This document shows, one piece after another, positions 10,468-14,932 of a stretch of DNA of 64,000 bases. Numbering within the stretch: position 1 is the stretch's first letter; each line of letters starts with the position of its first letter. Below the pieces are notes generated by a model that was not told the DNA's origin, did no database searches, and worked only from the letters and a program-made list of their open reading frames with translations. The translations under genes were made by a program, and so were the position numbers. This stretch comes from Candidatus Krumholzibacteriota bacterium (GTDB lineage Bacteria; Krumholzibacteriota; Krumholzibacteriia; JAJRXK01), in the NCBI GenBank assembly GCA_963727455.1, contig CAVSGG010000008.1, forward strand, positions 32,001 to 96,000. The letters run 5' to 3'.

Positions 10468-11481
10468 CTAGCCCGCTCGAAAGCACACGGGAAGACCCTC
10501 TCCCCGCGCAAGAACGCGTCCGATGGGCATGGGGGGCTCGCGCAACTCCGCGGCAATCCGCGAGGAAATCTCCTCACAAATCACGACCATCCCCAAGCCC
10601 AGGTTGAAGACCCGCCGCATCTCTTCGACTTCGATTCGACCTCGCTCTTGGAGCAATCGGAAGATGGGAGGGATCTGCCAAGAGCCCGCGTCGATTTGGA
10701 CCGCCAGCCCTTCCGGGAGAACTCGGGGAATGTTGTCGACGAGACCGCCTCCGGTGATGTGAGCCAGCGCTGCGATCGACTGATGCGCACGCAGCTCCAT
10801 CACTTGTGACAGATAGCTGCGATGCACCGCGAGAAGCGCATCGGCGAGCGAGCATCCCAGCCCTCCAGGATCCTCGTCCAAAGGAAGCCTGGATTCGCCC
10901 TCGAGCAGGACTTTGCGCGCCAGACTGAATCCATTCGTGTGCAGGCCGCTGGAAGGCCAGGCGTACACCTTCATTCCCTCTCTCACCGACGCGCCGCTGA
11001 TGAGGTCGTTTTCCTCCACTCTCCCCACGATACAGCCGGCCAGGTCGAAGTCCTCACCGTGATACACCCCGGGCATCTCCGCCGTCTCTCCCCCGATCAG
11101 CGCGCAGCCGTTTTCACGGCAGGCCTTGGCGAGCCCCTCCACCACCGCGACAAAGGTCTCTTCGCTCAGACTACCGGTCCCGTAATAGTCCAGGAAGAAG
11201 AGCGGCGTGGCCCCCTGAACCAGGATGTCGTTGACGCAGTGGTTCACCAGGTCCTCGCCGACTCCGCCTGGCTGCTGGGCCGCGAGGGCGATTTTCAGCT
11301 TGGTACCCACTCCGTCGATGGAGGAAACGAGCAGGGATCCGTCGGGCTGCCGATAGAGGCCCCCGAAAGATCCCACCTCCGATGCCACGGCAGGGCCCCA
11401 GGTGGAGCGTATGGCGGCACGGGAAGAGGCGAGCGCTTGGCTGGCGGCGTCGATATCGACCCCGGATTCGCGGTATTTCAT
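10468..11481 (-). CDS. purM: phosphoribosylformylglycinamidine cyclo-ligase
   Basis: YRESGVDI, DGVGTK, LIGGETAEMPG, SSGLHTNG, HITGGG, FNLGLG. Confidence 0.98.
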   Translation of the reverse strand: MKYRESGVDIDAASQALASSRAAIRSTWGPAVASEVGSFGGLYRQPDGSLLVSSIDGVGTKLKIALAAQQPGGVGEDLVNHCVNDILVQGATPLFFLDYYGTGSLSEETFVAVVEGLAKACRENGCALIGGETAEMPGVYHGEDFDLAGCIVGRVEENDLISGASVREGMKVYAWPSSGLHTNGFSLARKVLLEGESRLPLDEDPGGLGCSLADALLAVHRSYLSQVMELRAHQSIAALAHITGGGLVDNIPRVLPEGLAVQIDAGSWQIPPIFRLLQERGRIEVEEMRRVFNLGLGMVVICEEISSRIAAELREPPMPIGRVLARGEGLPVCFRAG

Positions 11482-11487
11482 GGCGGC

Positions 11488-11516
11488 ATGCTAGGGCGAG
11501 GCGGCTGTCCTGTCAA
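11488..11516 (-). promoter_or_regulatory. sigma70-type promoter of purM (leaderless geometry)
   Basis: TTGACA-17-TAGCAT, 6 nt upstream of ATG. Confidence 0.7.
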
Positions 11517-11556
11517 AGAGAGGCATGGCGGCGGTCGGAGAGCCTCGCGACCGGCT

Positions 11557-12909
11557 CTAGCCCACCGGCAGGCCGACGGGAAGCTCGGCCTCGCGCGTGG
11601 CAGCGTCGTGCAGAATTCTCTGGATCTCCAGGGCGGTACCGTCTGCCTGAGCGATCACCTTGAAGCTGCCGTCGGCGTACATCGACTCGATTGCATCGAC
11701 CACGTCCTCGGCGAACTGGCTCCCCTTGAAGCGGCGCAACTCCTCCATGCACTGCTCGAGCGAGAGCGCAGCCCGGTAGGGACGGTTGGAGGTCATGGCG
11801 TCAATTGCGTCGCAACAGTTGAGGATGCGGCTGCCCAGTTTGACCTCGTCGTCGCGTAGACCGTCGGGATAGCCCAGGCCATCCGGACGCTCGTGGTGAT
11901 GACGCACCAAGTCCGCCGCGCCCTTGAGGAACTTCATTTGAGAGACAATTTCGCCCCCGATCGCGGGATGGGAAGCGAGGATGTCGAACTCGTCCTTGGT
12001 CAGGCGCGCCGGTTTGCAGACGATGTCGTTGGTGATGGCGATCTTGCCTATGTCGTGCAGCAGTCCGGCGTACTCGAGCTCCTCGAGTTCCTCCGGCCCC
12101 ATTCCCATCCGCTGACCGATCTGCACTGCGTACTTCGCCACGCGATAGCTGTGCCCGTGCGTGTAGGGCTCGTCCGCTTCCAGGGCGGTGGTGAGCGCGG
12201 CCACGGTGTTGATGTGCGCTTCCTTCATTTCCTCGAAGAGCTTGTGGCTCTGCCAGATGATGAACAGCGGCAATCCAAAGAGCAGCAGCGACCAGAGTCC
12301 CGCGTACTCGTAGGAGAAGATGAGGAAAGCGCTCAGGGGTGCGGTGAGCAGGCCACTCAAAAAGTGCCAGGCGTAGTCGCCGCGCCAAACTTGATTCCAG
12401 GTCCGCCCTTCATTCAGGACGAGAACCGTGCTGGTGAGCGTCATGTTGACGCCAGAGAAAACCATGTGTGCCACGAGCGCGGGAATGAGGAACAGCGGCG
12501 AGGAGAGACTATCGACGCTGCTCCAGGGCAAGCTATGAAAAACGATGCCGGCCACTCCAACGGAGAAAGTCATCATCGCGATGTTGAAGATGACCTTCAA
12601 CGGAGAGCGACGCTTGATCAAGCCATCGCCCACCAGCAAACTCGCGCCTTCCATAAGCATCGCGGCAGCCGGACCGAGGGTTGCGATCACCGCAATGTCC
12701 ACGGTGGAGGAGGCCAGCCAGTCTCCGCCTGCTGAGGTCTTGACCTCGAAGAAATCGACTCCGATCAAGAACACACTGAAGCAGAGGATCGGAAGCCACT
12801 GAAGTGGTGAGATGGGGTAACGCTGAAATACCCACCAGCCCAACGCGTACGCCGCTACGGTGAGGACAAGAACGTAGAGAATTGCGATTGGTTTGCGGCG
12901 TATGAGCAT
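11557..12909 (-). CDS. membrane-bound HD-GYP cyclic dinucleotide phosphodiesterase
   Basis: ~220-aa multi-TM N-terminus, then HGHSYRV, LLHDIGK, HHHER.DGLGYP, DAIDAMTSNRPYR. Confidence 0.92.
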   Translation of the reverse strand: MLIRRKPIAILYVLVLTVAAYALGWWVFQRYPISPLQWLPILCFSVFLIGVDFFEVKTSAGGDWLASSTVDIAVIATLGPAAAMLMEGASLLVGDGLIKRRSPLKVIFNIAMMTFSVGVAGIVFHSLPWSSVDSLSSPLFLIPALVAHMVFSGVNMTLTSTVLVLNEGRTWNQVWRGDYAWHFLSGLLTAPLSAFLIFSYEYAGLWSLLLFGLPLFIIWQSHKLFEEMKEAHINTVAALTTALEADEPYTHGHSYRVAKYAVQIGQRMGMGPEELEELEYAGLLHDIGKIAITNDIVCKPARLTKDEFDILASHPAIGGEIVSQMKFLKGAADLVRHHHERPDGLGYPDGLRDDEVKLGSRILNCCDAIDAMTSNRPYRAALSLEQCMEELRRFKGSQFAEDVVDAIESMYADGSFKVIAQADGTALEIQRILHDAATREAELPVGLPVG

Positions 12910-12938
12910 TTGACCAAGGCCGGTTGAGAAGAGTTAGA

Positions 12939-12974
12939 CTACCACTTCACCTTACTACCGAGGACCCAGAACAT
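12939..12974 (-). CDS. 11-aa micropeptide MFWVLGSKVKW
   Basis: GAGGTG SD, 5-nt spacer, ATG TTC TGG GTC CTC GGT AGT AAG GTG AAG TGG TAG; ends 29 nt before the HD-GYP ATG. Confidence 0.65.
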   Translation of the reverse strand: MFWVLGSKVKW

Positions 12975-13137
12975 TTTCCCACCTCACATCGGATTGGATT
13001 TGCCGCCATGCTCCGCTAGGGGGCGGCAGTGAGGCTTCGCTACGCGCTCGGGAATATGTGCTCCGCTCGGGGTTTCTCTGCAGACAACTCCCCTCAACCG
13101 GCCAAAAAGAGACCACGACACAAGTCGCGACTTGCCA

Positions 13138-13887
13138 TCAGGCCGAGGCGGCCCGCCACGAGATCTGCTCGAGGGTGGCGTCCTCGTCCTGTACCATCAA
13201 GTCCTGAAACTCCGCTTTGCCCAGAGGCCGATTCAGAGCATCAAGACAGGCGTAAACCGTTGATTCATAAAGAGATCCATTGTCCCAGCAGGTACCGGCC
13301 AGGCGCTGGATCTGGCGATTTGCGCCGAAATCCAGCACTACGATGACCAGGGACCCGCCGGCCAGTGAGGCCACTCGGGTGGTCCTCAATTGGATCTCAT
13401 ACTGGGGTTTCAGCAAGTTGCGCACCGCTTGGACCGCCGCCTGGGCCACCAGAGCCACGCAGGCGTCTGCGCCCAGAGCCGGGCCTTCCGAGCGGCCAGG
13501 CAGGCCCTCGAAAGCGCCCAGACTCAACTCGACCTCGGCGACGAAATTTCCGCCGCTGGTGGTGGAGTGAACTGCGGCCAGACGGATCCGTGGCTGCGAG
13601 CGCGACGGGGGCCGGCTCACGGTCGACTGGTTTGAGGGGAGGGGGGAAGTGTGCGAGGAATTGAGCTGAACCACGCCGATCTTGCGATGATCCACCTGAA
13701 CACCGTGGCGACGGAGCACCGCTTCGACATCGCGCACGATGGGACGGGGAGGACGCTGGGTATCGCTCAAAACGTCGATCTGTTCGATTTCATGCTGAGC
13801 GTCCAGAATCACGGAGGCGTAGCTGACGTTGCGAATCCTCGAGAGCTCGCGCTCCACCTCCATCACTTTCTTCGAATCGAGACTCAT
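13138..13887 (-). CDS. conserved hypothetical cytosolic protein (HD-GYP-associated type)
   Basis: EIEQIDVLSDTQRPPRPIVRDVEA, VDHRKIGVVQ, C-terminal ACLDALNR; AGGTGG SD before ATG 13887. Confidence 0.8.
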   Translation of the reverse strand: MSLDSKKVMEVERELSRIRNVSYASVILDAQHEIEQIDVLSDTQRPPRPIVRDVEAVLRRHGVQVDHRKIGVVQLNSSHTSPLPSNQSTVSRPPSRSQPRIRLAAVHSTTSGGNFVAEVELSLGAFEGLPGRSEGPALGADACVALVAQAAVQAVRNLLKPQYEIQLRTTRVASLAGGSLVIVVLDFGANRQIQRLAGTCWDNGSLYESTVYACLDALNRPLGKAEFQDLMVQDEDATLEQISWRAASA

Positions 13888-14020
13888 GGATCCACCTGAG
13901 TTCTTTCTGCCCATTCCGCTGCTCCGGCGGGATTCGTCGCGCTACGACTGTAGCACACGGCTTGATCCGCCACCAAGGAAGAAACAGACTAAGCCATGAA
14001 ATGACAAAAGATTGAAGGGT

Positions 14021-14932
14021 TTACTTCGGCCAGGCCACGAGCTGGCGCAGCTCCTCGCGTCTCTGATTCACTGCGGCCGGCCTTAGATTTTCCAGGCCGC
14101 GGACGCTGAAGTCCTCTGCGGCGAAGCTCGCGAGCACCGTACCCTCGATCATGGCCTCGCGCAGGAGATCGTGATCCAGCTTCTCGCGACCGGCCAGATG
14201 GCCCAGAAAGCCACCGGCAAAGGTGTCCCCTGCACCGGTCGGGTCCTTGACGCGGTCCAACACCACCGCCGGCAAAGCGAAGCGCTGCGCGCCGTCGAAG
14301 AGGAGAGCTCCGTGCTCTCCCTTCTTGACGACCACTCGCTCGGGTCCCATGGCCTGAATCACCCGCACCGATTCGACCAGGGAGTGCTTTCCGCTCAACA
14401 GGCGCACTTCCTCGTCGTTGAGAAAGACGAGATCGGAGCGCTCGAGCACTTTGACCAGCTCCTCGCGCGAGGATTCGATCCACAGATTCATGGTGTCCAC
14501 CGCCACCAGTCGCGGGCTCTTGACCTGCTCGAGAACTTCCAGCTGCAGAGAGGGGTGGATGTTGGCGAGGAAGAGAAGTTCGGGATCCCGGAAGCTCCAA
14601 GGGAGAACGGGATGGAAGTGCTCGAAGACGTTCAAGTGGGTGAAGAGAGTGTCACGCCGATTCATGTCCTCGTGATAGCGCCCTCCCCAACGGAAACACT
14701 CCCCCTTCTCCACTTGGAGTCCGCTAGTGTCGATCTCCTTGCTCGACAGGAGATCACGGGCACTCTGGGGAAGGTCCTCTCCCACCACAGCGACCAGTCC
14801 CACCTGCGCATTGCGCGCGGCGGCGAGCGAGAAAAACGTGGCGCTCCCGCCCAGGGCGTTTTCTGCCTTTCCCCAGCGAGTCTCCACCGAGTCCAAGGCT
14901 ACCGAGCCCACTACGACGATCTGCATGAGCAT
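14021..14932 (-). CDS. PfkB-family carbohydrate/nucleoside kinase
   Basis: GSVALD, GGSATFF, DTMNLWI, NDEE, DPTGAGDTFAGG. Confidence 0.93.
   Translation of the reverse strand: MLMQIVVVGSVALDSVETRWGKAENALGGSATFFSLAAARNAQVGLVAVVGEDLPQSARDLLSSKEIDTSGLQVEKGECFRWGGRYHEDMNRRDTLFTHLNVFEHFHPVLPWSFRDPELLFLANIHPSLQLEVLEQVKSPRLVAVDTMNLWIESSREELVKVLERSDLVFLNDEEVRLLSGKHSLVESVRVIQAMGPERVVVKKGEHGALLFDGAQRFALPAVVLDRVKDPTGAGDTFAGGFLGHLAGREKLDHDLLREAMIEGTVLASFAAEDFSVRGLENLRPAAVNQRREELRQLVAWPK

Follow-up and report, generated by a model that had tools for sequence, protein, structure and literature searches.

Comparison of related genomes shows that an open reading frame of only 11 codons in a Candidatus Krumholzibacteriota bacterium is a genuine conserved gene, and the shortest member of a family of tiny peptides ending in tryptophan. 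The frame, encoding MFWVLGSKVKW, lies in a 64,000-nucleotide (nt) stretch of contig CAVSGG010000008.1 (positions 32,001 to 96,000; hereafter the window), within a conserved structured RNA of ~190 nt that separates the gene of a protein referred to here as A from that of a MASE9-HD-GYP phosphodiesterase. We see an even chance that its product is a membrane micropeptide whose synthesis is gated at translation and which targets the A/MASE9-HD-GYP module through putative binding, with an additional cis coupling to HD-GYP translation in this lineage. The RNA motif (absent from Rfam) and the peptide family are new and the family of A is unnamed; no earlier description of the locus or the peptide was found in the literature searched, subscription journals and supplements being outside its scope.

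An earlier, sequence-only reading of this stretch had pointed to the small open reading frame (sORF), to its strong GAGGTG Shine-Dalgarno (SD) sequence at 5 nt and to its position 29 nt before an HD-GYP gene, all of which can be read directly in the sequence (the gap of 29 bases between the sORF stop and the HD-GYP ATG spans 12938..12910). The same reading took the downstream product for a membrane HD-GYP protein with intact motifs, and rightly so: this open reading frame (ORF) matches Pfam MASE9 (PF20972; E=3.5e-9, 37.3 bits against a cut-off of 24.3) and HD_5 (PF13487; E=1e-30, 107.2 bits), and its translation holds both HDIGK and GYP, so that it has the membrane domain and the HD-GYP domain with both motifs that define the MASE9-HD-GYP class. 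The upstream protein of 249 residues, described there as of unknown function, indeed has no Pfam or NCBIfam match, and no Pfam family was found at E≤0.01 for A or eight of its relatives.

Relatives of the sORF occupy the same position in 77 loci from two candidate phyla (Krumholzibacteriota and Eisenbacteria), each led by a strong GGAGGTG-type ribosome-binding site. Within the window's family an SD-led sORF ending in W and a stop codon is present in 10/10 loci (one partly N-masked); within the genus, the peptide is identical in three species and the fourth has V-to-I and K-to-R exchanges along with synonymous changes. Three other genera of the family have sORFs of 12, 15 and 19 codons (e.g. 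MRWLMSVMLAGHIKW and MTFLEMMLDFFSLAGVIKW), the length varying by whole codons only. In L004, L024 and L038, from one species of the window's genus, a run of N hides where the sORF ends and where the HD-GYP gene starts, and only the first nine residues of that peptide are known.

Alignment of A against one genome per species gave a breadth scan of 50 loci, and in 43 of them the gene after A, in the same orientation, encodes HD-GYP. R1, a covariance model built on the RNA core, matched just upstream of the sORF in 33 of the 50 loci, 32 with a complete W-ending sORF and one N-masked; five sORFs without a model match and five recognised by eye raise the total to 42/50. The eight A loci left comprise one that is N-masked, two labelled Latescibacterota, three labelled Coprothermobacterota, one with purM after A, and one contig end. 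Further to that, 16/16 new loci found by the RNA model alone show the same arrangement, with A first, then the RNA and its W-ending sORF, and HD-GYP last. Searching orthologous loci for the sORF, as had been proposed, thus found the SD-led, W-ending frame kept in 10/10, 32/33 and 16/16 loci of the three sets.

Protein A itself was found in 41/41 genomes of the window's class, and a MASE9-HD-GYP homologue adjoins it in 18/20 loci fetched. In the second phylum (represented by the Eisenbacteria-labelled genome G168) A is present in 77/101 genomes, or 76/100 if G187 is left out; of the 29 loci studied in that phylum, HD-GYP lies downstream of A in 25, and an SD-led sORF whose final two residues include W is present in 23; four additional loci carry longer sORFs. 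The statement in the sequence-only reading that the family of A sits beside membrane HD-GYP genes elsewhere is therefore borne out (43/50 and 25/29 loci). Its three-part module survived in part: A, the sORF and MASE9-HD-GYP do form a conserved locus, but the sORF is absent from many lineages that have the other two. Six loci of other families lack a W-ending sORF, and in these the genes of A and HD-GYP either abut or overlap; sORF-less lineages (L012–L016, L020) showed no fusion of the peptide to the N-terminus of HD-GYP. Conversely, L105 keeps A and the sORF though purM, not HD-GYP, comes next. We conclude that linkage of the sORF is strict to A and near-strict to HD-GYP. Phyla were counted conservatively given duplicated loci under differing NCBI labels: L062, L071, L073 and L074 (labelled Latescibacterota, Fibrobacteraceae or 'bacterium') are the same loci as L098–L101, which GTDB places in the window's class, and such conflicting names for identical loci make the NCBI labels of these metagenome-assembled genomes look unreliable.

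The 77 loci yield 59 distinct peptides of 11–40 residues, all 59 with a positive grand average of hydropathy and with Trp making up 11.3% of residues. The W is terminal in 52/59 and four peptides have one extra residue beyond it; [K/R/H]-x-x-W followed by at most one residue occurs in 56/59, and [G/S/T/A]-[K/R/H/Q]-x-x-W in 47/59. The ending G-x-x-x-x-W given in the sequence-only reading was roughly right, [G/S/T]-[K/R/H]-x-x-W being the better consensus. There are a 14-residue group (e.g. MLDWLLGLFSRWEW) and a 19-residue group (e.g. MWFIILDWFFGDVDTKVWW), and the second phylum has 16-residue amphipathic forms, acidic near positions 2 and 6 and ending in [G/T]-[K/R]-A-G-W, 20–21-residue forms, and forms of 23–40 residues with a hydrophobic stretch of transmembrane (TM) length. 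In the last type the C-terminal motif can be repeated inside the ORF, two and three times in L112 and L118. Relatives of 20–40 residues, long enough for a membrane anchor, look like small membrane proteins, which would fit a peptide working at a membrane sensor; many members of the family are amphipathic and carry acidic residues in their N-terminal half, and the window's peptide is probably an N-terminally shortened version retaining the C-terminal motif. Pfam and NCBIfam searches with six peptides of 20–40 residues gave nothing meaningful, and a word-index search with the 40-residue peptide matched only itself, under the name hypothetical protein.

Selection on the sORF is of a coding type. 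Among 23 distinct 14-codon sORFs the ratio of non-synonymous to synonymous polymorphism (pN/pS) is 0.49 in frame, whereas out of frame it rises to 1.08 and 1.28. Variation is greatest at third positions, and the second-position T of hydrophobic codons is invariant. Synonymous changes are seen within the genus and in RNA-library contigs. Hydrophobicity and [K/R/H]-x-x-W kept across two phyla suggest a function at the level of the peptide rather than mere translation. Peptide groups follow clades of the MASE9-domain tree (two clades, support 100/99), which shows co-inheritance only, as kin share labels; L043, L046, L059 and L066 are marked in that tree as sORF-less though the sORF is present. 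Stop codons of 43 distinct sORFs are TAG in 29, TAA in 13 and TGA in one, compared with TGA in 28, TAG in 14 and TAA in three of 45 long frames of the window, a contrast inflated by relatedness, although TAG and TAA interchange repeatedly. Dependence on release factor 1 (RF1) or the shunning of Trp-tRNA read-through after a Trp codon are possible reasons for the avoidance of TGA.

The leader upstream of the sORF is more conserved than the flanking genes, and leader and sORF together are bounded by a long-range helix, P0 (Table 1). The window's element (12912..13108) has a minimum free energy of -84.7 kcal/mol (z=-3.83, 200 shuffles), and ten relatives folded independently by minimum energy are all closed by a P0 of 12–19 bp, whose sequence differs among genera with pairing retained. 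P0 of the window measures 19 bp; in L035/L036, which are near-identical loci, 19 bp is also the length of the longest helix without interruption, compared with 8.4 in shuffles. Inside it, helix P1 pairs GCCUCAC with the SD-containing GUGAGGU. Over 35 sequences, in an alignment fitted to the model, P1 has 82.7% of cells paired with 5/7 pairs changed on both sides, and P2 95.1% with 5/6 pairs compensatory; jointly the two reach 86.5% with 10/14 compensatory pairs, a result that 0/500 shuffles equal, and slid controls give 30–52% pairing. Twenty-one sequences of the second phylum give 11/14 compensatory pairs for P1/P2, with P2 84.3% paired and 7/7 compensatory. In the 14-codon group, a structure-blind MAFFT alignment of 25 leaders (slid controls 28–45%) has P0 95.6% paired with 5/10 pairs compensatory, and an extra helix of GAGCG with UGCUC of the start region, 92.8% paired.

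Table 1. Coordinates of features at the locus, numbered from the first letter of the window
Feature	Positions	Strand	Details
sORF	12939..12974	-	11 codons and TAG; ATG at 12974, stop 12941..12939; read directly
SD of the sORF	12985..12980	-	GAGGTG; spacer GGAAA, 5 bases to ATG
MASE9-HD-GYP phosphodiesterase gene	11557..12909	-	450 aa; ATG without recognisable SD
Gene A	13138..13887	-	249 aa; alternative start 13914 gives 258 aa; upstream of sORF, same strand
Terminator-like hairpin	13112..13131	-	right after gene A stop, then T run abutting P0 5' strand
Whole RNA element (leader and sORF)	12918..13103	-	bounded by P0
P0 5' strand	13085..13103	-	
P0 3' strand	12918..12937	-	begins 2 nt past sORF stop, ends 8 nt before HD-GYP ATG
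Anti-SD strand of P1	13029..13035	-	GCCTCAC
SD-side strand of P1	12981..12987	-	GTGAGGT
Hairpin P2	13001..13028	-	7-bp stem, conserved loop
AGCGGA copy 1	13062..13067	-	part of GAG-NN-GAG
AGCGAA copy 2	13036..13041	-	
AGCGGA copy 3	13012..13017	-	in P2 loop

The leader also carries a repeated word, AGCGRA, of which the relatives folded have two to four copies; it stands at 2.78 copies per leader versus 0.13 in shuffles and 0 on the opposite strand (67 distinct leaders); 64/67 have two or more copies, the commonest spacing being 5 nt, which gives GAG-NN-GAG. Two known readers of such repeats were considered and set aside. CsrA (PF02599) was rejected for the window's genus, where 0/5 genomes (89–98% complete, all keeping the RNA) contain it, while 25/41 genomes overall have a csrA gene; TRAP (PF02081) was found in 0/41 genomes, with a positive search control in Bacillus subtilis.

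P0 is not equally evident everywhere. Compared with shuffled 3' windows it is clear (z below -2) in 36/64 loci, and the longest helix has at least 10 bp in 42/64; strong signals come from the window's phylum, its 19-residue group excepted, and from the longer peptide forms of the second phylum. In loci that have P0, the 3' strand starts 1–17 nt past the sORF stop. The SD-less HD-GYP start lies 26–57 nt past that stop in the window's family, while in the 14-codon group it comes 120–270 nt further on and has a separate weak SD. Within this 120–270-nt spacer (L044–L083), (T)GCCGATA or close variants recur 40–100 nt past the sORF stop, and could be part of an unfamiliar promoter type or an operator. 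A run of five to seven T follows the 3' strand of P0 in L032, L033, L081, L083 and L074, and other lineages, the window included, have two T only; in some lineages P0 and the T run could form a terminator with a 170-nt 'loop'. Scans of the spacers of L126, L123 and L081 for consensus sigma-70 promoters and local terminators (other promoter types were outside the scan) found none or no more than in shuffles.

R1 matched 14/151 genomes of the window's class, one copy each. A broader model, R2, matched 40/151 genomes of the phylum, again one each (9/9 in family f1, 27/60 in f2 and 3/10 in f6), as well as 21/30 loci of the second phylum; in the genome-wide searches the copy was always the one between A and MASE9-HD-GYP. 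Rfam 15 gave no match at E≤1 in positions 11000-14500 of the window. Among 10 diverse loci it gave three weak matches, which were located elsewhere and scored under the gathering thresholds.

Protein A belongs to a widespread family (2684 cluster representatives at E≤0.001). Its AlphaFold2 model (pLDDT, the predicted local distance difference test, 81.6) has an N-terminal alpha/beta ferredoxin-like domain, a Pro-rich linker and a C-terminal domain. Residues 99–223 align by VIA-align with 3f6g_B (Z 9.2, root-mean-square deviation 2.9, 108 aligned of 115) and with 3fig_A (Z 8.3), Foldseek places the C-terminal domain with LeuA (E=1.4e-4), and an Atlas cluster carries an automatic LeuA-allosteric name with a score of 0.92. 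On this model, the C-terminal half has the fold of the LeuA/citramalate-synthase allosteric domain (two beta-beta-beta-alpha units), and amino-acid binding is putative. Residues 1–77 (alpha-beta-beta-alpha-beta) reach Z 7–8.5, a common range, with C-terminal domains of CDF transporters and with the ring-building domains of EscJ/PrgK. A match of the A profile to an archaeal RNA polymerase subunit among sequences of solved structures was marginal (E=0.011) and was disregarded; no enzyme-like fold was matched.

The mechanism that we favour, a micropeptide gated at translation and acting on the module, would run as follows. By default the sORF would be weakly translated, with its SD paired to the anti-SD strand (P1, closed by P2) and the whole element clamped by P0. 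A factor, either a protein or a small ligand, engaging the repeats or P1 would free the SD; the peptide would enter the inner membrane and there exert a protein-level effect on the module with which it is inherited. Its most likely target would be the HD-GYP enzyme, at the intramembrane MASE9 sensor, or else protein A, and the outcome would be a tuning of cyclic-dinucleotide breakdown. In the window's lineage, a ribosome terminating at the sORF stop would have to melt P0, and since the 3' strand of P0 covers the region before the SD-less HD-GYP start 29 nt away, HD-GYP translation would be coupled to that of the sORF. We favour a function in trans because of the internal motif repeats, the relatives that look TM-like, the persistence of the sORF in L105 with no HD-GYP behind it, and the long spacers of the 14-codon group. 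Ligand binding within the membrane has been proposed for MASE9 in a preprint (bioRxiv 10.1101/2021.11.05.467447). Complex prediction for the 40-residue L118 peptide with its own MASE9 domain scored 0.00 in two runs in which the controls did not fold, and is neutral on binding. It is also conceivable, though quite unlikely, that A is the RNA-binding regulator: an oligomer formed through the ring-building-like N-domain and switched by an amino acid in the LeuA-allosteric-like domain, reading the GAG-NN repeats in the manner of TRAP and gating the micropeptide, which in turn switches MASE9. If true, this would be a relay from amino-acid status through RNA and an 11–40-residue peptide to second-messenger turnover, without a described counterpart.

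A number of observations weigh against a micropeptide acting on the module. The window's 11-residue form lacks the acidic residues of its relatives and is too short to span a bilayer. The avoidance of TGA and the position of P0 right after the stop point to a role of the termination event itself, as in a cis-acting leader. P0 was not detected in 28/64 loci (z>-2), including most 16-residue forms of the second phylum, and therefore cis coupling cannot be general. R2 matched 0/71 genomes in five other families, in a genome search with stricter filters in which weak matches may be lost. A and HD-GYP are adjacent without the sORF in 6/17 loci inspected, and since the two occur sORF-free in many lineages, the enzyme works without the peptide, which is an accessory and not an obligatory subunit.

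Traces in RNA libraries would fit expression of the element. Twenty-four public runs contain words of window positions 12800-13300; six of these runs are RNA libraries, in which the share is small. When contigs were placed on 12300-13950, those of four RNA libraries, each from a different study (wetland, rhizosphere and two salt marsh), covered 12921..13092 only, the missing cover of the A and HD-GYP coding regions being no evidence of absence. These contigs are 159–227 nt long in total, four being 95–99% identical and two below 90%, one at a depth of 30.9; the sole difference inside the sORF is a synonymous AGT-to-AGC. In three studies a contig stops at 12921-12923, which is where P0 ends, and the eight-letter loose ends of one contig are presumably sequencing adapter, which they resemble. 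However, the contigs prove neither transcription, nor ends, nor abundance, DNA may be present, and the runs were selected for sharing words with this stretch.

The sequence-only reading saw the peptide as a ligand or subunit of the TM sensor domain; the anatomy of the locus supports cis regulation no less well, because the RNA, which that reading did not notice, sequesters its own SD and here extends over the region where HD-GYP translation would initiate. Taken to its end, this would make the sORF a purely cis-acting leader peptide, with C-terminal residues that slow termination and a ribosome on the stop codon that blocks P0, permitting translation of HD-GYP in the window or read-through of P0 plus U-tract in some lineages. 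We consider this rather unlikely, but it is kept alive by the position of P0 1–17 nt after the stop, by the near-absence of TGA (1/43) and by the 11-residue length; the 29-nt gap to an SD-less start in the window, conservation strongest at the C-terminus, the U runs after P0 in L032, L033, L081 and L083, and, as a weak hint, the three contigs ending with P0 speak for it as well. There is also a precedent, since the 14-residue peptide PepNL alone can block release according to its report (PMC11890864). On the other hand, such a leader would hardly call for a hydrophobic or amphipathic character over the whole length in two phyla, for TM-like forms of 23–40 residues, for one residue beyond W in four peptides, or for motif copies inside the L112 and L118 ORFs, which are superfluous as a stalling signal at a stop codon and thus favour a peptide-level function. 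It also fits poorly with the 120–270 nt and separate weak SD before HD-GYP in the 14-codon group, with L105, where no HD-GYP lies downstream, and with the loci in which P0 is undetected.

In another reading the locus would chiefly make a stable regulatory RNA, clamped by P0, that uses its repeats to titrate or recruit a protein binding RNA, and the sORF would be secondary; this appears very unlikely to us. The repeats are enriched about twentyfold, strand-specific and most often spaced at 5 nt, the structure is strong (z=-3.83), and discrete short contigs occur in the RNA libraries, the deepest without any flanking gene assembled; but the element has a fixed site between two same-strand genes with no promoter or local terminator of its own detected, the sORF is under coding-type selection, and no known binder is at hand, as set out above for CsrA and TRAP. 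Highly improbable, in our estimate, is a type I toxin-like module, in which 5'-3' pairing and SD sequestration would silence a membrane-damaging peptide: the small hydrophobic product, the sequestered SD and the long-range helix agree with it, whereas toxins of this type are patchy and often multi-copy and here one copy per genome is inherited vertically at one syntenic site in two phyla, 11–16 residues is below the size of known toxins of this kind, and no antisense RNA gene was seen, though none was specifically modelled. We would give as little credence to the idea that the sORF encodes the precursor of a signalling peptide that is modified or exported and that MASE9 detects from the outside. 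For all its conserved terminal Trp with Lys/Arg and the sensor gene nearby, there is no leader-core organisation at 11–16 residues, no conserved modifying enzyme or exporter alongside (the neighbours are purM and a pfkB-type kinase), and A matches no enzyme-like fold. Chance, finally, can produce 11 codons with an SD in 228 nt, but it is refuted by conservation in 77 loci with coding-type substitutions, and its probability is negligible.

The element would work in the manner of small-protein regulators of membrane sensors and of leader-peptide switches, and its build resembles that of dual-function or type I toxin RNAs, but by the criteria tested it could be assigned to none of the known families with which it was compared. 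MgrB and SafA are small membrane proteins tuning PhoQ; as here, a tiny hydrophobic product is encoded next to or under control of the system that it modulates, and the 20–40-residue relatives share the TM-length segment, but the proposed target is MASE9-HD-GYP and not a histidine kinase, most members have 11–16 residues, and there is no sequence relation. The dual-function RNAs RNAIII/hld and SgrS/SgrT and the type I toxin mRNAs hok and AapA1 likewise combine an embedded peptide ORF with strong RNA structure, a long-range 5'-3' helix and sequestration of the SD; the present element differs in being operon-like, single-copy and vertically inherited, with no known pairing target or antitoxin. 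TRAP sites are reiterated GAG with a period of 5 nt, and CsrA sites are GGA motifs in single strands or a hairpin loop. The present element also has repeated motifs of this sort, GAG at a 5-nt period or GGA, placed in single strands and in a hairpin loop ahead of the SD, but with just 2–5 AGCGRA units, with TRAP absent from all genomes searched and CsrA missing in the window's genus. TnaC and SpeFL are leader peptides acting at their own stop codon. Together with PepNL (PMC11890864) they share a very short upstream ORF with conserved C-terminal residues, directly before the regulated gene and with structure past the stop. The micropeptides have no sequence similarity to them, are hydrophobic throughout and use RF1-type stops (TAG/TAA) instead of TGA; adjacency to the target, with P0 after the stop, is seen in the window's family, but in most lineages the micropeptide gene is far from the next gene (120–270 nt in the 14-codon group), and stalling here is hypothetical. 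TM1467 and HdgA have the same MASE9-HD-GYP architecture as the downstream gene, but the accessible text of their preprint (bioRxiv 10.1101/2021.11.05.467447) names no partner peptide, protein A or leader RNA.

At 11 codons the sORF is among the shortest conserved bacterial coding genes. The locus offers an RNA motif with clear covariation and possibly a new kind of repeat-reading RNA-binding factor, together with a widespread protein family of amino-acid-sensor-like fold. We know of no ligand for MASE9, although membrane-sensor HD-GYP enzymes are, to our knowledge, common, and a co-inherited micropeptide is a concrete candidate partner for this sensor. The small size of all the parts would allow the system to be reconstituted in vitro, an advantage given that the organisms are uncultured.

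The terminator-like hairpin after gene A is weak on its own, with two such sites in the region against 2.1 expected in shuffles, but it is kept within the window's genus; were termination there efficient, the leader would require its own promoter, for which space is lacking. In the Coprothermobacterota-labelled loci L065, L068 and L072, A is followed by ~260 nt of conserved non-coding sequence, which might be a T-box-like leader, and by prolyl-tRNA synthetase, with no HD-GYP. The next gene after HD-GYP in the window is purM (AIR synthase, 10468-11481, minus strand). In L070 purM directly follows A, and in L105 it follows A and the sORF, so that the stretch between A and purM looks like a site for a cassette made up of the HD-GYP gene, either alone or together with the sORF.

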